This document shows, piece after piece, positions 5,908-41,430 of a DNA stretch of 64,000 nucleotides; the stretch's first letter is position 1; every line of letters starts with the position of its first letter. The DNA is taken from assembly GCA_043753835.1 (NCBI GenBank), contig JAYUVY010000089.1, positions 6,828 to 70,827 on the forward strand, given 5' to 3'. Source of the DNA: Lysobacterales bacterium. Its GTDB lineage: Bacteria; Pseudomonadota; Gammaproteobacteria; Xanthomonadales; Ahniellaceae. The translations under genes and the position numbers were made by a program. Under the pieces are notes generated by a model. The model saw only the letters and a list, made by a program, of their open reading frames with translations, was not told the origin of the DNA and did no database searches.

Positions 5908-6030
5908 TGTGCGACCTGACGCCATCACGCCTCGGGCGCCCGCCGCGCGATGACGTGCGACGCCTCGGCGCGTCTTCCGGAGAATCTCTGAATGTACGAT
6001 CAGGTCCCTACCGGAATCGGAGTGCGGACA

Positions 6031-6402
6031 ATGCGCAGTGCGTGGGCAGTCATTCTCTTGGTCGGAACCAGCACTGCTTGTGCGGATGCTTCGATCACCT
6101 TCGTCTGCTGTGCCTACACGCCAACCGCGGCCACTATTTCGGTGGGGGAGAGTGTCAGTTTTTCGGGCGAGTTCAACTTCCATCCGTTGCGGCAGGTGGA
6201 TGGGCCATCTTCCGACACCCCGACCCCAGGTGGCTTCGCGAATAGCACCGGAACTTTCTATGCCGTGCAATTCAACACGCCCGGCACCTACTACTTCCAG
6301 TGCGCATACCACGGGACATTTGGCGGCCCCATGCGCGGCAGTGTTCAGGTTCTCCCCCTGACTCCTCCCCTCGACCTGATTTTTAACGACGGGTTTGAGT
6401 GA
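6031..6402 (+). CDS. small secreted cupredoxin-like (type-1 blue copper) protein ending in the DGFE motif
   Basis: The internal ATG at 6031 follows ggagtg and gives the signal peptide MRSAWAVILLVGTSTACA. Candidate copper ligands are FNFHPL and YYFQCAYHGTFGGPM (His, Cys, His, Met). The C-terminus is ...DLIFNDGFE-stop. Confidence 0.65.
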   Translation: MRSAWAVILLVGTSTACADASITFVCCAYTPTAATISVGESVSFSGEFNFHPLRQVDGPSSDTPTPGGFANSTGTFYAVQFNTPGTYYFQCAYHGTFGGPMRGSVQVLPLTPPLDLIFNDGFE

Positions 6403-6403
6403 G

Positions 6404-6427
6404 TGCGCCGGCGAAACCGGTGAAGCG
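6404..6427 (+). repeat. conserved short hairpin just 3' of a DGFE gene (copy 2)
   Basis: tgcgccggcgaaaccggtgaagcg. It sits at the same position relative to the stop codon as copy 1. Confidence 0.6.
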
Positions 6428-6487
6428 TAAAGGGTGAAAGTCCTCGCCAACAAATGAGTAGCGATCCACGTTGTCCCGCCACGAGGC

Positions 6488-7432
6488 TTACTGCATCGAA
6501 GTCGGGGTCACGCTACCGTTGTTGGCGTTGCCGAGGATTCGGTTGTTGCCGAATGAATTGATCACCGCACCGCTCGCGGCGAATACGCCGGTGGCATTGC
6601 CACTGATTGTGCTGTCGCCGACGCGCACGCGCGTGTTGCTGCCGGCGGCATTGATACCGGCCGCTCCGAAGTCGGTGATGCGACTGCTGTCGACATAGAC
6701 GTCGATCACCGGGCCCGGCGAGAGTACGGTTGGCGCGAGCAGGATGCCATCCTGCGCACCGCCGCTGAGCGTTGTGTCGCGCAGGTAGATTTCGGCGGCA
6801 CCCGTGACGAACAGGCCGCGCTGCACCGATTCGATCTGGCTGTCGTTCACCGTCAGCACCACGCTGCTGGCCGTCGGGGCGACGCGGATCGCGGCGAAGT
6901 CGGCGGTGCTTGCAACATTGCGGAAGCTGACACGCGAGAGCGTTACCGCCGTCGCGGTCGTAGTGTTGATGTCGAGGGCGTGCTGCGAGGTGTTTTCAAT
7001 GGTGACGTCCTCAAGCAGCACCTTGCCCGCCGACAACACCCGCACGGCCGACGTGCCGAGGGTCGTGCCGGCGCCATTCAGTCGGATATTGCGCAGGATC
7101 ACCGAGCAGCCGTCGTTCACGCCGGTGCAGTTGACGATGACGCCGCTCACTCCAGAGTGCAGGATGCTGCCGAGCGCACCGTCGGTCTGCAAGGTGATCG
7201 CCTTGGTGATGGTCACGGCGCCGAAGCCACCCGGGTCGAGCACGCTGATCTCGCCACCCGTGGCGGTCTTGCTGATCGCACCCGCAAACGTCTTGCATGG
7301 CGCCGTGCGTGAACACGGATTGACGTCGTCACCGACGCCGGAAACCCACGTGCGCGTGGCTTGGGCATGCACGGCACCAACAGCGGACAGGACGCAAAAC
7401 ACGAACATGAAACGAATGATCCGACGCATCAC
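6488..7432 (-). CDS. secreted right-handed parallel beta-helix repeat protein
   Basis: Signal peptide MMRRIIRFMFVFCVLSAVGAVHA. This is followed by TWVSGVGDDVNPCSRTAPCKTFAGAI and repetitive G/N/T/V-rich ~22-aa turns typical of beta-helix proteins. Confidence 0.7.
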   Translation of the reverse strand: MMRRIIRFMFVFCVLSAVGAVHAQATRTWVSGVGDDVNPCSRTAPCKTFAGAISKTATGGEISVLDPGGFGAVTITKAITLQTDGALGSILHSGVSGVIVNCTGVNDGCSVILRNIRLNGAGTTLGTSAVRVLSAGKVLLEDVTIENTSQHALDINTTTATAVTLSRVSFRNVASTADFAAIRVAPTASSVVLTVNDSQIESVQRGLFVTGAAEIYLRDTTLSGGAQDGILLAPTVLSPGPVIDVYVDSSRITDFGAAGINAAGSNTRVRVGDSTISGNATGVFAASGAVINSFGNNRILGNANNGSVTPTSMQ

Positions 7433-7926: not shown

Positions 7927-9513
7927 CTAAAGAAACGCCCGATACGCCGGGTTCGTGGTTTCTTCGACGTAGCTGTAGCCGAGCGCGGCGAGATGCGCGT
8001 CGAAGTCGGTCGCGGAGGCGGCATCGACTTGCACGCCGGCGAGGACGCGGCCGTAGTCGGAGCCGTGGTTGCGGTAGTGGAACAGGCTGATGTTCCAGTC
8101 GGTGCCGATGGCGTCGAGGAATTTCAGCAGCGCACCGCGGCGCTCGGGGAACTCGAAGCGGAACAGGCGCTCGTCGGTGATCGACTGGGCCTTGCCACCG
8201 ACCATGTAGCGCACGTGCAACTTGGCCATTTCGTTACGGCTCAAATCCTCGACCGCGAAGCCGGCATGGCGGATCGAGTCGACGACGGCGTGCCGATCTT
8301 CGCTTGCGGGATCGATGGCCAGACCGACAAAGATGCGTGCTGCGCTGGCGTCGGCGTAGCGGTAGTTGAATTCAGTGACGGCACGGGTGCCGATCACATC
8401 GCAGAAGCGCTTGAAACTGCCGCGTTGCTCGGGAATGGTGACGGCGAGCAGCATCTCGCGTTCGGCACCGAGGTCGGCGCGTTCGGCGACGTGGCGGAGG
8501 CGATCGAAGTTCATGTTGGCGCCGCTGACGATCGCGACGCAGGCCTTGTCCGGTGCGCCATTGGCGTGCAGATACTTCTTCAACCCGGCAATCGCGAGCG
8601 CGCCTGCGGGCTCGGCGACCACGCGCGTATCTTCGAAGACATCCTGGATCGCCGCGCAGATTTCGTCGGTCGAGACCAGCACGACGTCGTCGACCAGATC
8701 GCGCGCGACGCGGAAACTTTCATGTCCAATCTCGCGCACTGCGGCACCATCGGCAAACACGCCGACGCGCGGCAGTCGTACTGGGCGTCCGGCGCGCAAT
8801 GCCGTATGCAAAGTCGGCGCATCCTCGGGTTCGACGCCGATGATGCGGATGTGCGGGTACAGCGCCTTCGCATAGGCGGCGACGCCGGCGATCAAGCCAC
8901 CACCACCGACCGGCACGACGATGCAGTCGATCTCGTCGCCATGGCGTTGACGCAGAATTTCCATCGCAATGGTTCCCTGACCGGCGATCACTTCCGGATC
9001 ATCGAACGGATGCACAAAGCTCATGCCGTGCGCGTGTTCGAGTTCGCGCGCATGCGCATAGGCGGCATCGAAATCGTCGCCATGCAAGACGATTTCACCG
9101 CCGAGATCAGCGACCGATTGGAGCTTGATGCGCGGCGTCGTCGTCGGCATCACGATCACTGCGCGCAGACCGAGCTTGCGTGCCGCGAGCGCAACACCCT
9201 GGGCGTGATTGCCGGCCGAAGCGCAGATCACGCCGCGTGCGCGCGCTGTCGCATCAAGCGATGCGATCTTGTTGAACGCGCCGCGCAGCTTGAACGAGAA
9301 CACCGGTTGCTGGTCTTCGCGCTTGAGCAACACCAGTGCCCCGAGTTTCTTCGACAGCCGCGGCGCGCGCTCCAACGGTGACTCGATCGCGACATCGTAG
9401 ACGCGCGCCTTGAGCACGCGCTGCAGATAATCCGCGCAGACCTGCGTGCGTTGCGGCGCGATGATCGATTTCGCGTCCGCAGGCAGCGGCATGGCGAGCG
9501 CGGATTCGCTCAT
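7927..9513 (-). CDS. ilvA: biosynthetic threonine dehydratase (threonine ammonia-lyase)
   Basis: PLP-lysine motif FSFKLRGAFNK, two C-terminal ACT-like regulatory repeats, and a 4-nt overlap with ilvE. Confidence 0.9.
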   Translation of the reverse strand: MSESALAMPLPADAKSIIAPQRTQVCADYLQRVLKARVYDVAIESPLERAPRLSKKLGALVLLKREDQQPVFSFKLRGAFNKIASLDATARARGVICASAGNHAQGVALAARKLGLRAVIVMPTTTPRIKLQSVADLGGEIVLHGDDFDAAYAHARELEHAHGMSFVHPFDDPEVIAGQGTIAMEILRQRHGDEIDCIVVPVGGGGLIAGVAAYAKALYPHIRIIGVEPEDAPTLHTALRAGRPVRLPRVGVFADGAAVREIGHESFRVARDLVDDVVLVSTDEICAAIQDVFEDTRVVAEPAGALAIAGLKKYLHANGAPDKACVAIVSGANMNFDRLRHVAERADLGAEREMLLAVTIPEQRGSFKRFCDVIGTRAVTEFNYRYADASAARIFVGLAIDPASEDRHAVVDSIRHAGFAVEDLSRNEMAKLHVRYMVGGKAQSITDERLFRFEFPERRGALLKFLDAIGTDWNISLFHYRNHGSDYGRVLAGVQVDAASATDFDAHLAALGYSYVEETTNPAYRAFL

Positions 9514-10484
9514 GCCAGCGCCGTATTCAAGTCGTGCTCGACTTCAATCTCGCCGCCACCGACATGATCGAGCCAGCCCCAGGCGTCATGCGTGCGGCCG
9601 TCGAACAGGCCGAAGAACGCGTCCTGCAACTCGCGCGTGATCGCGCCGCGCACGCCCTCGCCGATGGTGAGGCCGTCGATGGATCGGATCGGCGTGACCT
9701 CGCACGCGGTGCCGGTGAAGAAGGCTTCGTCGCAGACATACAGCGCTTCGCGCGGCATGGCTTGTTCACGCACTTCGTAGCCGAGCGCGCGTGCCAGCTG
9801 GATGATGGTGTCGCGGGTGATGCCGGCGAGAATGGCTGCGCTAGCCGGCGGCGTGTAGAGAATGCCGCGCTTGACCAGGAACAGGTTCTCGCCGCCACCT
9901 TCGCTCAACATGCCATCGACGCCGAGCGCGATGCCTTCGTGGTAGCCGTGGCGCACGGCTTCCATGCTGATCTGCTGGCTGTTCAGATAATTGCCGCCGG
10001 CCTTGGCCGACACCGGCAAGGTATTCGGCGCCGGTCGCTGCCACGACGAGATGCAGGCATCGACGCCGTTCTCGAGACTCTCCGCACCCAAATACGCCGC
10101 CATCTCGGTGGCAGCAATCGCGACTTCGATCGGCGAATCAGCCTTCGGTGCCAGTGAATAGCCGCACATGCCACGGAACGCGATCGGACGCAGATAGGCG
10201 CCGCCGGTCAGACGATTGTTGCGCACGATCTGGCGGCAGGCATCGTGCAATTCGGCCATTCGATACGGAATGCGCATGCGATGGATGCGCGCCGACTCGT
10301 AAAGGCGCTCGAGATGATCGGTCAGCCGGAAGATCGCCGTGCCTTTCGGCGTCGTATACGCGCGGATGCCTTCGAACACCGAGGAACCGTAGTGCAGGCC
10401 ATGGGTCAGCACGTGCACTTTCGCGTCCTGCCACGGGACGAAGTGACCGTTGTGCCAGATGTATTGGGAAGGTTTGAAGGACAT
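9510..10484 (-). CDS. ilvE: branched-chain amino-acid aminotransferase
   Basis: IWHNGHFVPWQDAKVHVLTHGLHYGSSVFEGIRAY and the full class IV aminotransferase length. Confidence 0.9.
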   Translation of the reverse strand: MSFKPSQYIWHNGHFVPWQDAKVHVLTHGLHYGSSVFEGIRAYTTPKGTAIFRLTDHLERLYESARIHRMRIPYRMAELHDACRQIVRNNRLTGGAYLRPIAFRGMCGYSLAPKADSPIEVAIAATEMAAYLGAESLENGVDACISSWQRPAPNTLPVSAKAGGNYLNSQQISMEAVRHGYHEGIALGVDGMLSEGGGENLFLVKRGILYTPPASAAILAGITRDTIIQLARALGYEVREQAMPREALYVCDEAFFTGTACEVTPIRSIDGLTIGEGVRGAITRELQDAFFGLFDGRTHDAWGWLDHVGGGEIEVEHDLNTALA

Positions 10485-33568: not shown

Positions 33569-34322
33569 GTTCTTCGGCTCCGGTGGCAATGGTCTGATCC
33601 CAGGGAAAGCTGCGCTCGAACTGGTCGCCCTGCGCTGATTTCACCACGAGCACGACGCGGTTGGGGGTGAATCCTTCCGGCAGCACGAAACTCACGTCGA
33701 GTTCCTGGAAATATTTGAACGAGAAGTCGGGGGCCAGTTCCGGCTTGCGCTGTGCCAGGTCGTTCCAACCCAGTGCGCGCAAATCGCCGTCGAGCATGCC
33801 TTCGACGCGAATCGAGGCCGAGCCGCTGGTGACTTCGCCCTTGCGCAGGTTCTGTGTCAGGGTCGCACGCATCTCGTAGCCGTTGCCCTCGCCGATCTTG
33901 CGCAACGCGAGTTGCTGCACGGTCAGGCCCTGACGCGGCGCCTTGCCGCCCATCAGTCGTTGGTAGAAGGCGAGGTCGGCACGCAGCGATGCGATTTCTT
34001 CTTCGCGTGAGGTCAGCGAGTCGCGCAAGGCATCGTTCGCACTGCGCGAGACCTGGTCGGAGCGGTCACTGACGCTGAGCTTCTGTTTGCCGCTCTCGAG
34101 CTCGATACGCGCGTCGCGCAATTCCGACTGTGCCTGCGACAACCGCTGCTGCATGTCGAACAAGCCCGGTGCGGCGCGCTTTGATGCGATGATCCAAGTC
34201 GCGGCGATGCTCAACAACCAGAACGCGACGATCGCGATACGCAAGCGGCGCGCATGCGCAGGATCGTGCGCTTGCACGATCAGGGGCATGGAACTGGGAT
34301 GGAATCTGAACGGGTTCTTCAT
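33555..34322 (-). CDS. membrane-anchored coiled-coil protein (DUF6776-like), hypothetical
   Basis: One TM helix (RIAIVAFWLLSIAATWIIA) followed by a coiled coil (LSQAQSELRDARIELESGKQKL). It overlaps the bactofilin start. Confidence 0.6.
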   Translation of the reverse strand: MKNPFRFHPSSMPLIVQAHDPAHARRLRIAIVAFWLLSIAATWIIASKRAAPGLFDMQQRLSQAQSELRDARIELESGKQKLSVSDRSDQVSRSANDALRDSLTSREEEIASLRADLAFYQRLMGGKAPRQGLTVQQLALRKIGEGNGYEMRATLTQNLRKGEVTSGSASIRVEGMLDGDLRALGWNDLAQRKPELAPDFSFKYFQELDVSFVLPEGFTPNRVVLVVKSAQGDQFERSFPWDQTIATGAEEHVWK

Positions 34323-34392
34323 TCGTGCGCCGAAAAAACGCGAGCGGCCTTATAGCCCGCGATTTGCGGCCTTCGCAAGGAACAGTTTGCAC

Positions 34393-35202: not shown

Positions 35203-36102
35203 CTAATTGTCGCTGGCCGCCTTGCGTGTGGCGCTGATGCGCACCCAATCGTCCTGTTGCTTGATCTCTATGGCATCGAAATCGCCGCGGTAGGCGGCGG
35301 CGACTTCCACAGCCTGGTCGACGAGGATGCCGGACAAGGCCAGCGGGGCGCCCATGCGGCAGTGCCCGGTGATGATCGGCTGCAGCGTGGTCAGCGCGCC
35401 GGCGAGGATGTTCGCGACCACGACATCGGCGGTCAGTCCGGCTGGCACTTCGTCGGGCAGATACAGATCGAATTGCGCGCTGACGCCATTGCGTTCGGCG
35501 TTGTCGCGACTCGCGGTGATCGCCTGCGGATCGTTGTCGATGCCGATCGCGCGCGCGGCGCCGAGTTTCAACGCGGCGATCGCGAGGATGCCCGAGCCGC
35601 AGCCGAAATCGAGCACGGTACGCCCGTGCAGATCGAGCCCGTCCAGCCATTCAAGGCAGAGCGCGGTGGTTGGGTGCGTGCCGGTGCCGAAGGCGAGGCC
35701 GGGATCGAGCCGCACAACGACGGCATCGGTATCGGCCGGTGGTTCGATGTTGGACGGATAGATCCAGGTACGACGACCGAATTGCATCGGCTTGAACTGA
35801 TCCATCCAGGCGCGCGTCCAGTCGGCATCGGCGACGTCGCGGGTCACGAGTTTCTCGGGCGTCAGCCACGGCACCATCAACTGCAACGCGTCGAACAAGC
35901 CGATGCGGTCCACCGTGGTCGGAAACAGCGCACGCACGATGACCTGCGGCCACATCGGCGTCTCGCCCGGGCCGGGCTCAAGGATCGGATGATCTTCTGC
36001 GTCGAGCAGGGTGATCGACGCGGCTTCAAGATCCTCGAGCGCAGCCTCGACGCGCGAGAGCGAACGCTGTTCCACTTCGATCGAGAGTTCGAGCCAGGCC
36101 AC
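35203..36102 (-). CDS. prmA: ribosomal protein L11 methyltransferase
   Basis: GLAFGTGTHPTTALCLEWL...VLDFGCGSGILAIAALKLGA. The GTG start shares one base with the upstream stop codon (TAGTG). Confidence 0.9.
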   Translation of the reverse strand: MAWLELSIEVEQRSLSRVEAALEDLEAASITLLDAEDHPILEPGPGETPMWPQVIVRALFPTTVDRIGLFDALQLMVPWLTPEKLVTRDVADADWTRAWMDQFKPMQFGRRTWIYPSNIEPPADTDAVVVRLDPGLAFGTGTHPTTALCLEWLDGLDLHGRTVLDFGCGSGILAIAALKLGAARAIGIDNDPQAITASRDNAERNGVSAQFDLYLPDEVPAGLTADVVVANILAGALTTLQPIITGHCRMGAPLALSGILVDQAVEVAAAYRGDFDAIEIKQQDDWVRISATRKAASDN

Positions 36103-37097
36103 TAACGAACCTCGGGAATTTGAAGATTCACGTGACTAGCAATGTTCAGTGCGAGTCGCTTGAAATCGAGGCGACAAGCCCGGACAGCATCCGTATGCGC
36201 ACCAATTACGCCATCTGACGCCTTCAATTCGAACATTGGTTTGCGCGCCTGCATGGCCAGAGGTGCGAGGCTCCGATAGTGCTTAAGGCTCGCGAGGTGA
36301 TATGGATCCTCGGCGATTGTTTTGCCGAAAGAATCCATCACAATATTTTCGTGAAATTCCGACGGGATGCGCGCCAGGAATCGCTCGTAGGCCTTGACGG
36401 GGCTTCCGTCTCGAAGTCCGAACTGCATCACAACGTATCCAGCAGGATGCATATCCCCGCTGGGTAGATTGAAATCCAGGTCTGTAGGTCGTTTTGCGAC
36501 ACGGTCGGCCCATTCGCTCCGCCATGCTTTGATTCGGGGCCCAAGATTTCGCAGTGCTTGAATCGAAAACAGGTCCGGGGCTAATGGGACCACGACGAAG
36601 TCGGCAGCGATCAATGCGGCGCGTGTTATCGCTCCCAGATTCGGGCCCAAATCAACGAGTGCCAATTGAGCGCCGGTGGCTGATCCGGCCATGGTTATTG
36701 CGCGGGAGAACGACGCGGTGAACCGCAGCGCCGACTCGTTTCCGCTGCTCGCCTGCATCCAGTCAATAGACATTCGGTCTTCGACCTGCGACAGGGCCAA
36801 GTCGCCAGGAAGCAATGAAAGACGTCGATTTACAGGCACTATCGGAGGAGGAAGAAGATCTCCTTTGCCGCGAATGAGCGGCTCAAGCATCCCGAAAATG
36901 CTGGCACGCGATCCACTGTCCGGCCAGATGCGTTGCAATCCAGCATCTGGCAGACACATGCTGGTCAGATTTGACTGCGGGTCGAGATCGACGCATACAG
37001 ATTCAATGCCAAGGTCGGCAAACATCCATGCGACGTGGTAAAGCAAGGTGGTCTTCCCTACGCCGCCCTTGTTGTTGAAGAAGGCAACAGTGATCAT
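36102..37097 (-). CDS. ParA/MinD-like deviant Walker-A ATPase with a ~100-aa C-terminal extension (no ParB partner)
   Basis: MITVAFFNNKGGVGKTTLLYHVA...VDLDPQSNLTS...ALVDLGPNLG. About 50-52 % GC in hand-counted lines, against ~62 % in accC. It shares an ATGA overlap with the upstream gene. Confidence 0.75.
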   Translation of the reverse strand: MITVAFFNNKGGVGKTTLLYHVAWMFADLGIESVCVDLDPQSNLTSMCLPDAGLQRIWPDSGSRASIFGMLEPLIRGKGDLLPPPIVPVNRRLSLLPGDLALSQVEDRMSIDWMQASSGNESALRFTASFSRAITMAGSATGAQLALVDLGPNLGAITRAALIAADFVVVPLAPDLFSIQALRNLGPRIKAWRSEWADRVAKRPTDLDFNLPSGDMHPAGYVVMQFGLRDGSPVKAYERFLARIPSEFHENIVMDSFGKTIAEDPYHLASLKHYRSLAPLAMQARKPMFELKASDGVIGAHTDAVRACRLDFKRLALNIASHVNLQIPEVR

Positions 37098-38287
37098 GCG
37101 CCGCGCGCAGCCATCGTGACGGCAAATTGACGATCGTCAGCAACAAACATCGCGGGCGCATGGCCGGCCTCGTTCAGTCGTCTCTGCGCTAGGCGAATTC
37201 CAGAGCCGTATCGATTGACATATCCAAGTGTCTTCATGGCCTCGGCGATGATTGGATTGCGATAGCTACTGCGAGTTTCCAACGTTTCCTTCGTAACTTC
37301 ACCTACCAGACCGCCTGGACTAATGATCTCTACCCGATCCAGAAACCAGTAGACGCGAATGGGTGTGTTCGATTGGTAGTCTCGATGCATGACAGCATTG
37401 TTGAATAGCTCGCTCAAGGCAACTTCAGGGTAGTCAGGTTGATAACGCTCAGCGATCCCGCCAGTACGGGCTACGGCAACTTGTATGCGCGCTCGAAACA
37501 GTTCTTGGACTTGCGAAACAACGCTTCTCAAGTCCCCCGACACTTCTCGCTCACTAATCGGCGAATCCGTCACGTCGGTGCTCGGCCACACTACGAACTG
37601 TACGTACGCCCCGGGTAAGAAGAATCTTGGGTTGATGCCGAACAACAGGAGCCCCGCATGCGTCGGGAGTTCCGCTCGCAAATCAAAGAAGCGAAGCGCT
37701 GCAAGCTGCTCACTGGGTGTTCGATGATTGGCCGCGATGATTTCGTCTGCAACCACGGCCGCGCGGTATTCCCCAAACAATCGCATTGACAAGTCTTCGT
37801 TCGCAGCGCCCTGACATGGCTCAGCGTCAAAGGATCTTGCCGAGATTGACCTTCGCTCGGACAGCATCCGTTCTTCTTGTTCCGTCGCAATCGCTTTGGA
37901 GGGCCCTACTCGAATCCAGACTCGACCCCGGTAATTCACTGGCGGCAATAACGCAGGTTCAACAGCGACGACTGCTACATCTCCGCCTTCGAAAGTATGT
38001 TTGCTAACGGTCATCGCGGGAAGGGGTTGGATATTTCCATCTCGACGCAATCCAGCAAGTCCCTCAAGTAAGCGCTCCGTGACGATCAAGCCTGAGGGCT
38101 GCCCGTTCTTGCGCACGCCGAGCAGCAAATAGCCGGGCTTGCGATGATTAGGAAAGTCATTCGCAAATGCACAGACGGCTTCACTGAACTTGTCCGTGTT
38201 TGTAGTTGATTCGGTGCGCTCGACGCGATCCGATTCCAAATCGGCCATCAACGCGAATACCTGATCGTCCGTAAGAGCGGCCATCAT
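37094..38287 (-). CDS. Schlafen-like AlbA_2 domain protein with a C-terminal HATPase_c_4-like domain
   Basis: N-terminal pattern DLESDRVERTES...EAVCAFANDFPNHRKPGYLLLGVRKNG...VWIRVGPS (AlbA_2-like). C-terminal pattern ELFNNAVMHRDYQSNTPIRVYWFLDRVEIISPGGL...YRNPIIAEAMKTLGYVNRYGSGI (HATPase_c_4-like). The start is 8 nt after the accC stop. Confidence 0.7.
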   Translation of the reverse strand: MMAALTDDQVFALMADLESDRVERTESTTNTDKFSEAVCAFANDFPNHRKPGYLLLGVRKNGQPSGLIVTERLLEGLAGLRRDGNIQPLPAMTVSKHTFEGGDVAVVAVEPALLPPVNYRGRVWIRVGPSKAIATEQEERMLSERRSISARSFDAEPCQGAANEDLSMRLFGEYRAAVVADEIIAANHRTPSEQLAALRFFDLRAELPTHAGLLLFGINPRFFLPGAYVQFVVWPSTDVTDSPISEREVSGDLRSVVSQVQELFRARIQVAVARTGGIAERYQPDYPEVALSELFNNAVMHRDYQSNTPIRVYWFLDRVEIISPGGLVGEVTKETLETRSSYRNPIIAEAMKTLGYVNRYGSGIRLAQRRLNEAGHAPAMFVADDRQFAVTMAARGA

Positions 38288-38295
38288 CTTGATCC

Positions 38296-39660
38296 CTACA
38301 AGCCGATCGGCTTGTCCTTGCGTTCGGCGATGCGTTTTTCGAGGTAGTGGATGTTCATGCCGCCGAGCTGGAAACCACGGTCGGCCAGGATGCGGCTTTG
38401 CAGCGGCACATTGGTCTTGATGCCGTCGATGACCATTTCCGCGAGCGCCACACGCATGCGCGCGATCGCGGTGGCGCGGTCGGCGCCGTGCACGATCAGC
38501 TTGCCGATCATCGAGTCATAGTTCGGCGGAATGCGGTAACCGTCGTAGATGTGCGTGTCGACGCGTACGCCCGGACCGCCTGGCGCATGGAAGCGCGTGA
38601 TCATGCCCGGGCTCGGCATGAAGGTGTCCGGGTCCTCGGCATTGATGCGGCATTCGATGGCGTGGCCACGCAACACGATGTCGCTCTGCTTGATCGACAG
38701 CTTCTCGCCGCCGGCGATCAGCAGTTGTTCGCGCACCAGATCGACGCCGGTAACGAACTCGGTCACCGGATGCTCGACCTGGATTCGGGTATTCATCTCG
38801 ATGAAATAGAAGCGCCCGTCCTGAAACAGGAACTCGAAGGTGCCGGCGCCGCGATAGCCGATGCGGATGCAGGCTTCGACGCAGACCGCGCCGATCTCGT
38901 CGCGCATCGCCGGGGTGATGCCGGGCGCGGGCGCTTCCTCGACCACCTTTTGATGGCGACGCTGCATCGAGCAGTCGCGCTCGCCCAGATGGATGGCATT
39001 GCCCTGGCCGTCGGCGAGCACCTGGATCTCGATATGGCGCGGGTTCTCGAGGAATTTCTCCATGTACACCATGTCGTTGCCGAACGCGGCCTTGGCTTCG
39101 GCCTTCGTGGTGCTGATGGCGTTGTGCAGCGTCGATTCGGTATGCACGACGCGCATGCCGCGACCGCCGCCGCCGCCTGCGGCCTTGATGATCACCGGAT
39201 AGCCGATGTCGCGCGCATGGCGCGAATTCTCGTCCGGGTCGTCGCCGAGCGGACCGCCGGAGCCCGGCACGCAGGGCACGCCGGCCGCCTTCATGGCGCG
39301 GATCGCCTCGACCTTGTCACCCATCAAGCGGATGACTTCCGCGGTCGGGCCGATAAACACGAAGCCGGACTTCTCGACGCGCTCGGCGAAGTCGGCGTTC
39401 TCGCTCAGAAACCCGTAGCCGGGATGAATTGCTTCGGCATCGGTCACTTCCGCCGCGGCAATGATGCGCGGGATGTTCAGATAACTTTCGCTGGCCGGGG
39501 CCGGGCCGATGCAGACCGATTCATCGGCCATGCCGACATGCTTCAGATTGCGGTCGACCGTGGAATGCACTGCCACCGTCTTGATGCCGAGCGCATGGCA
39601 GGCGCGCAGCACGCGGAGCGCGATTTCGCCGCGATTGGCGATGACGACTTTGTCGAGCAT
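38296..39660 (-). CDS. accC: acetyl-CoA carboxylase biotin carboxylase subunit
   Basis: [33 protein letters not shown] and the full ATP-grasp architecture. Confidence 0.93.
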
Positions 39661-39670
39661 CTGGGCGCGC

Positions 39671-40147
39671 TCAGCTGATCACGAACATGGGTTCGTCGAA
39701 TTCGACCGGCTGACCACTGGTCGCGAGGATCGCCGTCAGCGTGCCGGAAAAATCGGCTTCGATCTGGTTGAACATCTTCATCGCTTCGATGATGCCGAGC
39801 ACGTCACCGGCCTTCACCTGTTGTCCGATCTTGACGAAGGCTGGCGCTTCCGGGTTCGCCGAGCCGTAATAGGTGCCGACCATCGGTGCGCGGATCACAT
39901 GGCCGTCCGGCAGTTCGCGTCCGCCACTGTGGCCACTCTCCGCATGCGCGTGATGCTTGCCGGCGCTCGGGCGCTGTTCGACGTGCACATGGGTGACCGG
40001 AGCGGCCTGCTGGGGGGCGGCCATCATCGGCATGTTCTTGGGAAAGCGCGCCAGGCGCACCACTTCCTCGCCTTCCTTGATTTCCAGCTCGCTCAGGTTG
40101 CTCGCTTCGAGCAGGTCGATGAGTTTCTTGATCTTGCGCAGATCCAT
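39671..40147 (-). CDS. accB: acetyl-CoA carboxylase biotin carboxyl carrier protein
   Basis: The internal ATG follows GGGAG and gives [23 protein letters not shown]. Biotinylation motif [11 protein letters not shown]. Confidence 0.9.
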
Positions 40148-40209
40148 GGTCTTGCTCCCTCGTTTGGCCTGGGCTTTGGGCTCAGGTCCGCGTTTGTTGG
40201 TAGCCATAT

Positions 40210-40659
40210 CTATTTGCCCGCTGCGAGGCGCCGAAGCGCCGCATTCAGGGCCATGTCGTAGCCGTCCGTGCCGAAGCCGACGATCACGCCAGCAGCGCGA
40301 TCGGAAAACAGCGAGCGGTGGCGGAAGGGTTCGCGTGCATGCACATTGGAGACATGGACTTCGATGAACGGGATGTCTGCCGCGATGATCGCGTCACGCA
40401 AGGCGACACTCTGGTGGGTGAATGCACCCGGATTGATCACGATGAAGGCAGTTTGGTCGGTTCTTGCGGCGTGAAGTCGTTCGATCAGCGCCAGTTCGCT
40501 GTTGGACTGCAGGTGTTCAACGGTATGGCCGGCCGCGTTGGCCAGCGCCTGCGCATGCGCCTGAACCTCGGCCAGCGTGGTGGCGCCATAGAGCTGTGGT
40601 TCGCGCTGACCAAGCAAATTCAAGTTCGGGCCGTTGAGCAACAGGATCTTCGCCACCAA
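40210..40659 (-). CDS. aroQ: type II 3-dehydroquinate dehydratase
   Basis: [21 protein letters not shown]...[16 protein letters not shown]...[15 protein letters not shown]. Confidence 0.92.
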
Positions 40660-40801: not shown

Positions 40802-41203
40802 TCAGATCACCAGAAAGGCGACGTCGGTATGCGTGGCGACGAGACCTTGGTCAAGCGTCGCCAGCTTCAATTCGTGGTGGCGCGCCAGACCGGCCAGATA
40901 GGCGTCGGTGATCTGTTGGTGGCCAAGCGTCATGCGCCAATCGGCGCTGCGTACATCGATATCGGCCGGGATGAAAAAATGCCGCCGATCGCTGCAAATG
41001 CTCTCCAGTACCGCACCGATCTGGTGAATGCTGATGTCACGTCGGAGCTGTTTAACAATGCGCAGAAAGCCCAATTGCGTCAGTGGACAGGTGGCAAATC
41101 GGTCGTCGTTTGTCGACAGCCAGCGTTCTGCAATCGTGTTGTGCACATGATCGGTCAGCCCCAGCGCCAGCAGCACGCTGGTGTCCAGCAGGTAATCGGG
41201 CAT
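40802..41203 (-). CDS. vapC: PIN-domain type II toxin VapC
   Basis: MPDYLLDTSVLLAL... N-terminal acidic PIN motif; LATLDQG near the C-terminus. It overlaps the antitoxin stop by 1 nt (TAATG). Confidence 0.8.
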   Translation of the reverse strand: MPDYLLDTSVLLALGLTDHVHNTIAERWLSTNDDRFATCPLTQLGFLRIVKQLRRDISIHQIGAVLESICSDRRHFFIPADIDVRSADWRMTLGHQQITDAYLAGLARHHELKLATLDQGLVATHTDVAFLVI

Positions 41204-41430
41204 TACTCGTCCAGCGCCTTGAGTTCTGCAGTGGTCACCGGGCGCCCGATCGCCAATTTGAGAAAGCCCGTCACCGGACTCTGGATGAGTCCGGTTTTCG
41301 CGTCGGTGTCGAGCCCAAGGGCCTTGTCGCTCAGCGCCAGCAGCAGAGCGCCGAGATTCATGCCGCGGGCCTGCGCCAATTGCTTGAGTCGGCGGTGGGC
41401 CTGATCTGGAATGTCAATCGTGGTGCGCAT
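41203..41430 (-). CDS. vapB: VapB-type antitoxin (MRTTIDIPD family)
   Basis: The last 75 codons of track ORF 41203..42483: MRTTIDIPDQAHRRLKQLAQARGMNLGALLLALSDKAL. The rest of that ORF is antisense to the MFS gene. Confidence 0.7.
   Translation of the reverse strand: MRTTIDIPDQAHRRLKQLAQARGMNLGALLLALSDKALGLDTDAKTGLIQSPVTGFLKLAIGRPVTTAELKALDE

Follow-up and report, generated by a model that had tools for sequence, protein, structure and literature searches.

A low-GC gene pair for a Schlafen–GHKL protein and a ParA-like ATPase inserted between accC and prmA: a candidate mobile conflict module

A two-gene cassette in the accBC–prmA operon

The DNA analysed here is a 64-kb stretch of a contig from a Lysobacterales bacterium (hereafter the window, meaning the whole 64,000 nucleotides), on the minus strand of which two genes lie between accC, encoding biotin carboxylase, and prmA, encoding the L11 methyltransferase. 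The first of these (gene 1) encodes a protein that combines a Schlafen domain with a GHKL ATP-binding domain, whilst the second (gene 2) encodes an ATPase of the ParA/MinD type. We argue that the two together are probably a mobile conflict module, either of the abortive-infection or of the toxin–antitoxin kind, in which an ATP-gated Schlafen ribonuclease (RNase) would serve as the effector and the ParA-like protein as its keeper or sensor.

The cassette is extremely compact (Table 1). Direct reading of the sequence agrees with a preliminary description, made from the sequence alone, as to the order of the genes on the minus strand and as to all three junctions: the 8-nt spacer, the ATGA overlap and the TAGTG. 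The accC stop codon (TAG, 38296–38298) is so close to the ATG of gene 1 (38285–38287) that there is no promoter space ahead of gene 1, and a Shine–Dalgarno-like AGGGA (38293–38297) overlaps the stop codon itself. The ATGA overlap implies that translation of gene 2 is coupled to that of gene 1, and an identical 4-nt overlap is present in the related loci L004, L088, L181 and L183–L186. At the far end, the TAG of gene 2 and the GTG of prmA have one G in common. Neither promoter-like nor terminator-like sites were found inside the module on its own strand. Downstream of prmA lie genes for DUF3426, DUF6776, bactofilin and Fe–S proteins.

Table 1 Features of the accC–prmA region of the window
Feature	Position	Strand	Evidence
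aroQ	40210–40659	–	
accB	39671–40207	–	
accC (biotin carboxylase), upstream flank of the insertion	38296–39660	–	Pfam; L004 orthologue 94% identical
8-nt spacer GGATCAAG, accC stop to gene 1 ATG	38288–38295	–	Sequence read directly
Gene 1, stand-alone 'Schlatpase', 397 amino acids	37094–38287	–	Pfam, PADLOC domain matches, AlphaFold model, motif conservation
ATGA overlap, gene 1 stop/gene 2 start	37094–37097	–	Sequence
Gene 2, ParA/MinD-type deviant Walker A ATPase, 331 amino acids	36102–37097	–	Pfam/NCBIfam, model, motif conservation
Right junction	36100–36113	–	GAGG (36110–36113) inside the end of gene 2; TAGTG (36100–36104)
prmA (L11 methyltransferase), downstream flank, GTG start	35203–36102	–	Pfam PrmA, E = 1.5e-93

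Insertion, composition and spread of the cassette

That the module has been spliced into the accC–prmA junction, as originally proposed, is seen from close relatives. Homologues of PrmA assign the host to an uncultured Rhodanobacteraceae clade, whereas an exact look-up of the window AccC returned no record. In two Rhodanobacteraceae relatives, L089 (GCA_020054605.1) and L091, whose PrmA proteins are 84 and 81% identical to that of the window, accC is followed directly by prmA. The spacer at these empty sites is 14–16 nt long, with a Shine–Dalgarno sequence and an ATG, the prmA start region consisting of AAGGAG, a 7-nt spacer and the ATG. The pair is found at the same junction in L088 (PrmA 88% identical) and L004 (85%), the occupied sites being those of the window, L001, L003, L004 and L088. 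In the window, the insertion has taken out the whole of the accC–prmA spacer together with the A of the prmA ATG, and prmA now begins with a GTG that is served by a GAGG within the end of gene 2. The start codon and ribosome-binding site of prmA have thus been remodelled by the insertion.

How the cassette arrived was considered with the usual routes in mind. Comparison of the window with the empty sites reveals no target-site duplication, the window contains no tRNA gene, and no convincing repeats flank the module, in keeping with the preliminary description, which had also reported that there was no integrase; no integrase was found. Insertion by any of these means was accordingly rejected. 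Because integration remodelled the prmA start, imprecise loss of the cassette would be expected to harm prmA. Homologous recombination with an empty or an occupied allele evidently does remove or add the cassette cleanly. The suggestion that a position inside an essential operon makes the pair difficult to lose is only partly true, since both kinds of allele are present among close relatives.

The composition of the cassette is foreign. Gene 1 has a G+C content (GC) of 54.8% and gene 2 of 55.3%, against 64.0% for accC, 65.4% for prmA and 63.0% for the window, and GC at third codon positions (GC3) is 0.56–0.59 in the pair against 0.70–0.85 in eleven other genes measured nearby. All 1-kb windows below 58% GC in the 64 kb begin at 35.9–37.6 kb (z = –3.3), making the 2.2-kb cassette the lowest-GC stretch of the entire window. 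The dip in GC noted earlier is thus real, although shallower than the 50–52% that had been counted by hand. An ancestral housekeeping pair, present in all relatives and with host-like composition, does not fit these data: empty sites exist and the composition is foreign.

Between the window and L004, the flanking proteins are 74–94% identical and the pair only 68%. Between L004 and L088, synonymous divergence (dS) is 0.44–0.48 for the pair and 0.33–0.43 for the flanks, which shows that pair and flanks have diverged together in these two lineages, and the ratios of non-synonymous to synonymous divergence (dN/dS), 0.10 and 0.11 for the two genes, show purifying selection on the pair. Between the window and the related contig L001, dS in the cassette is only 0.017–0.030 against 0.20–0.39 in prmA and the DUF3426 and DUF6776 genes, and identity is 97–100% across 36035–38334 of the window, dropping to 80–92% at the gene 2/prmA junction. 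We take this to mean that recombination has recently spread the low-GC allele of the cassette among diverged backbones, with the caveat that these genomes look mosaic elsewhere as well. A further patch of 100% identity between the window and L001, at 33938–34337, suggests generally mosaic, recombining populations. In L002 (an ENA scaffold; 1100–2060), an apparently truncated prmA with an antisense open reading frame (ORF), beside an identical gene 2, was dismissed as an artefact of scaffold gaps (runs of N) and is no biological variant.

Gene 1 encodes a Schlafen–GHKL protein

Pfam searches reproduce the domain calls of the preliminary description for both genes. In gene 1, SLFN_AlbA_2 (PF04326) covers residues 18–132 (E = 7.5e-15, above the cut-off) and HATPase_c_4 (PF13749; E = 2.7e-19) represents the C-terminal GHKL ATP-binding domain, with a linker or winged-helix-like region in the middle. 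The AlphaFold model of the protein (predicted local distance difference test score, pLDDT, 78.8) finds its best match in DIP2311 (PDB 3LMM); its N-terminal domain matches the nuclease domains of SLFN11, SLFN14 and SAMD9, and its C-terminal domain the ATP-binding (CA) domains of PDK and histidine kinases. In PADLOC-DB v2.0.0, gene 1 produces domain-level matches only, to the pAgo and Aga_SIR2-PNTD models, with residues 19–354 aligning to the N-terminal part of the former. A HEPN domain was sought and rejected: no HEPN family was found in Pfam at E ≤ 0.01, and the only R-x5-H in the protein (RAELPTH) is unconserved in the alignment of orthologues.

The preliminary description regarded this architecture as having no assigned mechanism, a view that has been overtaken by papers of 2026 on what is now the 'Schlatpase' or pSlfn-HisKinase class, which give it tRNA cleavage and ATP-driven tetramerisation. 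According to these papers, bacterial Schlafens (pSlfn) are phage-activated tRNases, and in 34% of them the Schlafen part is joined to a 'HisKinase' domain, PF13749 (Perez Taboada et al., Nat Microbiol 2026); the Schlafen–GHKL unit was named 'Schlatpase' in a preprint on SLFN-pAgo, occurs in 58.6% of 103,533 prokaryotic Schlafens and, in SLFN-pAgo, undergoes tetramerisation of its Schlafen domains into an active nuclease when the GHKL domain binds ATP (bioRxiv 10.64898/2026.05.29.728809); and RNases composed of a Schlafen domain, a minimal histidine kinase and a winged helix-turn-helix domain are described as backup suicidal effectors in BREX and BREX-related (Hma-type) loci, with such Schlafen-HisK RNases in at least 1017 taxa (NAR 2026; PMC12839542).

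The residues on which such activities would depend were scored in an alignment of 75 orthologue pairs. The acidic pair E18 and E23 is universal (74/74). SLFN11 and the CRISPR-associated Schlafen CbCash have a catalytic acidic pair at the same position (E17/D22 in CbCash, where these are the residues that were mutated), and pSlfn and Cash proteins cut tRNA by means of their N-terminal acidic pair. The ATP motif is intact, with N297, G325, G329 and G361 in 75/75 and G363 in 74/75. Two co-varying subfamilies can be recognised, one with K25/Q293/Q358 (29/75) and the other, which includes the window protein, with T25/E293/N358 (42/75). Loss of the nuclease-motif lysine accompanies Glu for Gln in GHKL motif I, and both subfamilies are found within Hma loci.

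Gene 2 encodes a ParA-like ATPase without partition partners

Gene 2 matches the Pfam families AAA_31 (E = 9.4e-20) and CbiA (E = 8.2e-10) and possesses the motifs of a deviant Walker A ATPase, namely K10-GGVG-K15-T (KGGVGKT), D37/D39 and D149. The three aspartates are universal among the orthologues, with K10 present in 72/75 and K15 in 71/75. The structural model (pLDDT 93; predicted template modelling score, pTM, 0.92) best matches DIP2308 (PDB 3PG5), over its full length, followed by Soj, ParA, McdA and MinD (Foldseek probability 1.00). In PADLOC-DB v2.0.0, only the Walker A stretch (residues 3–42) finds a match, to PDC-M28B.

A role as a true partition ParA was considered and ruled out, NCBIfam scores being far below the cut-offs (58.7 bits against 180 for ParA_partition, 44.7 against 348 for RepA and 16.5 against 725 for SopA) and ParB being absent. 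Neither in the window nor at the other loci considered (the best 80 of at least 588 confirmed gene 2 relatives, with one genome per species) does a ParB-like gene lie next to gene 2, and a repeat search of the window module revealed no centromere-like array. The preliminary description is borne out on the lack of ParB and of centromere-like repeats, as it is on the ParA/MinD-type motifs. Its C-terminal extension of about 100 amino acids needs correction, however: gene 2 has about 70 residues more than Soj, and these form a conserved, family-specific C-terminal part of the fold that is included in the full-length match to 3PG5.

The best structural matches of the two proteins, DIP2308 (3PG5) and DIP2311 (3LMM), are uncharacterised structural-genomics proteins encoded in one Corynebacterium diphtheriae genome with locus tags three apart. 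They may represent a distant version of the gene 1–gene 2 association.

The two genes are linked across bacteria

The 80 best loci span about 20 phyla, with Nitrospirota, Acidobacteriota, Verrucomicrobiota, Planctomycetota, Chloroflexota, Cyanobacteriota, Actinomycetota, Bacteroidota, Chlorobiota, Fusobacteriota, Omnitrophota and WOR-3 among them. Homologues of each protein number in the thousands, vary little in length (about 394 and 327 amino acids) and are 50–60% identical across phyla, and a profile search of 1.84 billion cluster representatives returned 814 clusters at E ≤ 1e-30.

In 80/80 loci a gene 1 homologue lies upstream of gene 2 on the same strand, and in 78/80 the two are directly adjacent. 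Conversely, each of the three gene 1 homologues used for a reverse test is followed by a ParA-like gene that it overlaps by 4 nt. Over the 75 pairs, the pairwise identities of one protein correlate with those of the other (r = 0.65, Mantel p = 0.001), and in some instances the two are fused into a single protein, as in P0372 (731 amino acids; seven contigs from several sources) and P0496 (690 amino acids). The pairing is not due to chance and is obligate, which disposes of the objection, anticipated in the preliminary description, that the two genes might never be neighbours elsewhere. All-against-all clustering of up to five ORFs on each side at the 80 loci identified no third gene common to all of them; a cluster of 'NOV_C protein' genes, considered as such a third gene, proved to be the C-terminus of HmaA.

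Two loci are interrupted. In Roseateles sp. MS654 (L071, 8770–10004), about 1.2 kb with a 319-amino acid ORF separates gene 1 from gene 2, and in L012 (7624–10001) only a truncated gene 1 match is present, 1.9 kb upstream of gene 2. These interruptions may be insertion sequences or decay.

Defence loci and housekeeping loci

At approximately 15% of the loci the pair lies within an Hma or BREX defence operon. The HmaA SNF2 helicase–nuclease is encoded upstream of the pair in 12/80, and a gene for the HmaB DUF1156 methylase often follows on that strand. In Marinobacter sp. 1-3A the order is BrxR–HmaA–pair–HmaB, and a very common Burkholderiaceae variant has the order HmaA–pair–HmaB–HEPN–DUF499. 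The closest relatives from outside the Xanthomonadales (58–60% identity) lie between HmaA and HmaB. In one IMG/VR contig the pair sits between genes for a PglX-like methylase and PglZ, and in Cellvibrio japonicus Ueda107 between VapBC/Fic and a type III-like restriction–modification (RM) system. The association with defence islands that was claimed at the outset therefore holds for a sizeable subset, in Hma, BREX and RM loci, but not for most stand-alone copies.

The position of the closest relatives, the 12 loci with HmaA upstream and the published description of Schlafen-HisK RNases as accessories of BREX and BREX-related systems (PMC12839542) raise the question of whether the pair is, at root, a backup effector of Hma or BREX that functions only together with a helicase–methylase–ATPase system, for example by monitoring its inhibition much as PrrC does that of EcoprrI, in which case the window copy would be stranded, with little or no function. 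We think this improbable. At most loci the ORFs examined include no gene of Hma or BREX, and the window has none in the 5 kb or so around the pair, whose neighbours there are aroQ–accB–accC on one side and prmA–DUF3426–DUF6776–bactofilin on the other. Moreover, the stand-alone Rhodanobacteraceae pair is under purifying selection (dN/dS about 0.1) and has diverged in step with its flanks in L004/L088.

Two other explanations were weighed. According to the first, the pair would be a purely selfish addiction (toxin–antitoxin) cassette, with the Schlatpase as toxin and the ParA-like protein as antitoxin, that owes its persistence to post-segregational killing and to its lodging in essential operons, with no anti-phage role. 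Solitary copies scattered among unrelated housekeeping genes at most loci, the tight translational coupling of the two genes and their patchy presence in close relatives are all in line with this, VapBC- and TumE-type pairs also gather in the same operon region (see below), and a ParA/Soj–HEPN toxin–antitoxin pair has been predicted (Anantharaman et al. 2013). Yet about 15% of the loci are within Hma/BREX operons and others within RM, Fic or PIN islands, and both proteins are large conserved enzymes (394 and 327 amino acids, about 50–60% identical across phyla), unlike labile antitoxins. Many toxin–antitoxin systems are, in addition, themselves defence systems, for which reason this explanation is not cleanly separable from a conflict module with a role in defence. 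In its purely selfish form we regard it as unlikely, though it deserves more weight than the stranded accessory.

The second explanation dispenses with conflict altogether: the Schlatpase would bind nucleic acid as a transcription or RNA-metabolism factor and be positioned or regulated by the ParA-like ATPase, in the manner of McdA, PpfA or MipZ, orphan ParA proteins that place cargo with the help of a partner. An intact ParA fold with its ATPase motifs and an invariant partner gene would suit such a role, as would housekeeping neighbours at most loci and the K-to-T change in the nuclease motif of the window subfamily. Hard to reconcile with it are the sporadic distribution, suggestive of horizontal gene transfer (about 50% identity across phyla, with presence and absence in close relatives), the foreign composition, the copies within defence operons, the invariant acidic catalytic pair and the pairing of related ParA-like ATPases with SIR2, RES and RelA_SpoT toxin domains. 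We consider a non-conflict role very improbable and continue to favour a mobile conflict module.

Related ParA-like ATPases have other partners

Distant relatives of gene 2, 24–40% identical in near full-length alignments, are found on plasmids and prophages with partners other than Schlatpase. On a Spirosoma plasmid and on pVPon1 of Vibrio ponticus, the ParA-like gene is immediately followed by a SIR2 gene that it overlaps by 4 nt; pVPon1 carries a true ParAB of its own as well. The ParA-like proteins of such ParA-like–SIR2 operons (L096, 4001–5889; L097, 3995–5850) are 31–35% identical to gene 2, and PADLOC v2 does not contain ParA-like plus SIR2 as a system. A downstream gene for a protein of 282–300 amino acids is shared by 18 IMG/VR contigs, for which SIR2_2 was confirmed in the representative L126; the downstream gene of L161 was separately confirmed as SIR2_2. 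Another downstream gene is shared by 25 IMG/VR contigs, with RelA_SpoT, a domain of the small-alarmone-synthetase type, annotated in the representative L142 only (8001–9769). In P0427 a RES domain is fused to the ParA-like domain. Finally, in the P22-like Salmonella phages ST160 (L095, 3512–5065) and SE1, a DUF3024 gene precedes the ParA-like gene between the c2 repressor gene and gp24, which is a classic position for prophage morons and defence genes, and the phage DUF3024 protein is a full-length match to the PADLOC candidate PDC-S43.

Conflict systems are typically marked by a constant NTPase whose toxic effectors are swappable. It is possible, though we put it forward tentatively, that the clade of DIP2308 and gene 2 consists of unrecognised immune or toxin–antitoxin regulators, in which one ATP-dependent dimerising switch is combined with various effectors (Schlafen–GHKL, SIR2, RES, RelA_SpoT, HEPN), and that Schlatpase–ParA is the most widespread member, able to operate by itself at any chromosomal position, essential operons included, or as a further layer within Hma and BREX systems.

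Relation to known systems

With respect to pSlfn and Schlatpase proteins, gene 1 has the same SLFN_AlbA_2 and PF13749 GHKL domains, the same position for the N-terminal acidic pair and intact ATP motifs. It differs in lacking Ago, Ig-like, DUF262 or extra C-terminal HTH (helix-turn-helix) domains, in having a ParA-like partner at every locus examined and, in the window subfamily, in the motif E-x4-E-x-T in place of ExK. The searched text of the pSlfn, SLFN-pAgo and PMC12839542 papers makes no mention of a ParA-like partner, and no Schlatpase–ParA dyad was found in a search of the domain-centric discovery paper or of the Menshen paper.

A closer precedent is the dyad of a ParA/Soj-like ATPase and a HEPN protein (MAE_18760) which is predicted to be a toxin–antitoxin system with the ATPase as antitoxin and in which some of the HEPN toxins carry a Schlafen N-terminal domain (Anantharaman et al., Biol Direct 2013). 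Both that dyad and the present pair thus place a ParA/Soj-type ATPase in an operon with an RNase-type toxin able to carry a Schlafen domain. However, gene 1 has neither HEPN nor a conserved Rx4-6H, with a GHKL ATPase in that place, and the effector gene comes first in the present pair; membership of the HEPN dyad was ruled out on the grounds that gene 1 has no HEPN. We found no earlier description of the specific obligate Schlatpase–ParA pairing, the 2013 dyad being the only precedent. The claim that the system is undescribed thus stands for the specific pairing and has to be given up for its parts, the gene 1 class having been named in 2026 and a ParA/Soj–toxin dyad predicted in 2013.

More distant parallels are found in PARIS, which is made up of the ABC ATPase AriA and the TOPRIM tRNase AriB, and in PrrC–EcoprrI. 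Both follow the logic of an NTPase keeper or sensor combined with a tRNA-cutting suicide effector, and PrrC and PARIS-like modules are embedded in RM-like loci, as are many copies of the present pair (Hma, BREX). In fold the proteins have nothing in common, the present pair consisting of a ParA-type ATPase of the SIMIBI class and a Schlafen–GHKL protein, the others of an ABC ATPase with TOPRIM or HEPN. From ParABS, MinDE and McdAB, with which it has the deviant Walker A, A' and B motifs and the Soj-like fold in common, gene 2 differs in having no ParB-, MinE- or McdB-type partner and no centromere-like repeats, in a C-terminal part shared with DIP2308 and in a partner that is a nuclease-type protein. 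As for the effectors of Hma ('type-1 BR') and BREX, about 15% of the loci studied have the pair in that arrangement, whereas the window copy and most others are stand-alone.

A model for the Schlatpase–ParA module

To our knowledge, it is only in 2025–2026 that Schlafens have been shown to act as antiviral tRNases in bacteria. In the scheme that we favour, a self-contained 2.2-kb module would have recombined into the host accB–accC–prmA operon, from which it would be transcribed. Gene 1 would be the effector, a Schlafen-type endoribonuclease acting most likely on tRNA, with ATP binding by its GHKL domain driving oligomerisation and hence assembly of the active nuclease. Gene 2 would be a dedicated regulator that, as a ParA-like protein, presumably forms ATP-dependent dimers and either keeps the nuclease inactive in the manner of an antitoxin, or senses a cue linked to infection and then releases or activates the nuclease, or both. 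The module might act alone or as a second layer inside Hma/BREX loci.

Several observations weigh against this scheme. The canonical K of the Ex4ExK motif is T25 in the window protein (T in 44/75 orthologues and K in 30/75), which may mean that the activity of the nuclease is changed or abolished. When two pSlfn-HisKinase genes were tested in E. coli, neither was protective (Perez Taboada et al., Nat Microbiol 2026). Unrelated housekeeping genes, such as gyrA, recA, mutS and those for ribonucleotide reductase, SRP54, tRNA synthetases and catalase, are the neighbours of most stand-alone copies, and only a handful of 140 second and third neighbours at non-Hma loci match PADLOC models. The order of the genes, with the effector first, is the reverse of that in ParA–SIR2 and MNT–HEPN-like dyads, and no homologue above 35% identity was found on GenBank phages or PLSDB plasmids. 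PADLOC v2.0.0, a check proposed in the preliminary description, returned no system-level match for the pair. It is T25, the negative tests of HisKinase pSlfn genes and the weak defence-island signal of the stand-alone copies that lower our confidence.

Proteins combining Schlafen and GHKL domains account for more than half of prokaryotic Schlafens and have no demonstrated phenotype when tested alone. At every locus examined, one large and highly conserved branch of this commonest architecture goes with a dedicated ParA-like partner, which could explain these negative single-gene tests, and the present pair puts a name to the missing component. What appears to be new is that a proposed conflict system built on a Schlafen protein has an obligate ATPase of the ParA type that had gone unreported. 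This reading is supported as far as comparative genomics goes and, if correct, would make the pair the first immune or toxin–antitoxin system known to us to be controlled by an ATPase of this type. The pair also provides a link to the further ParA-like dyads (SIR2, RES, RelA_SpoT) on plasmids and prophages, and its locus illustrates the base-perfect recombination of a small conflict module into an essential operon and its spread between related lineages.

Other small cassettes in the neighbourhood

Two other two-gene modules were noted in the same region. A VapBC-like PIN toxin gene (40802–41203) and the gene for its 75-amino acid partner (about 41203–41430) lie on the minus strand of the window between a gene for an MFS-acyltransferase and aroQ. 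The VapBC-like pair is present in L004 and L089 and absent from L091, and thus represents a second small polymorphic two-gene insertion in this conserved region. Just downstream of prmA, L088 and L089 carry a two-gene module of TumE and HVO_A0114 type (5959–6599 in each), which is absent from the window, L004 and L091. The accC–prmA neighbourhood, it seems, gathers small conflict cassettes.

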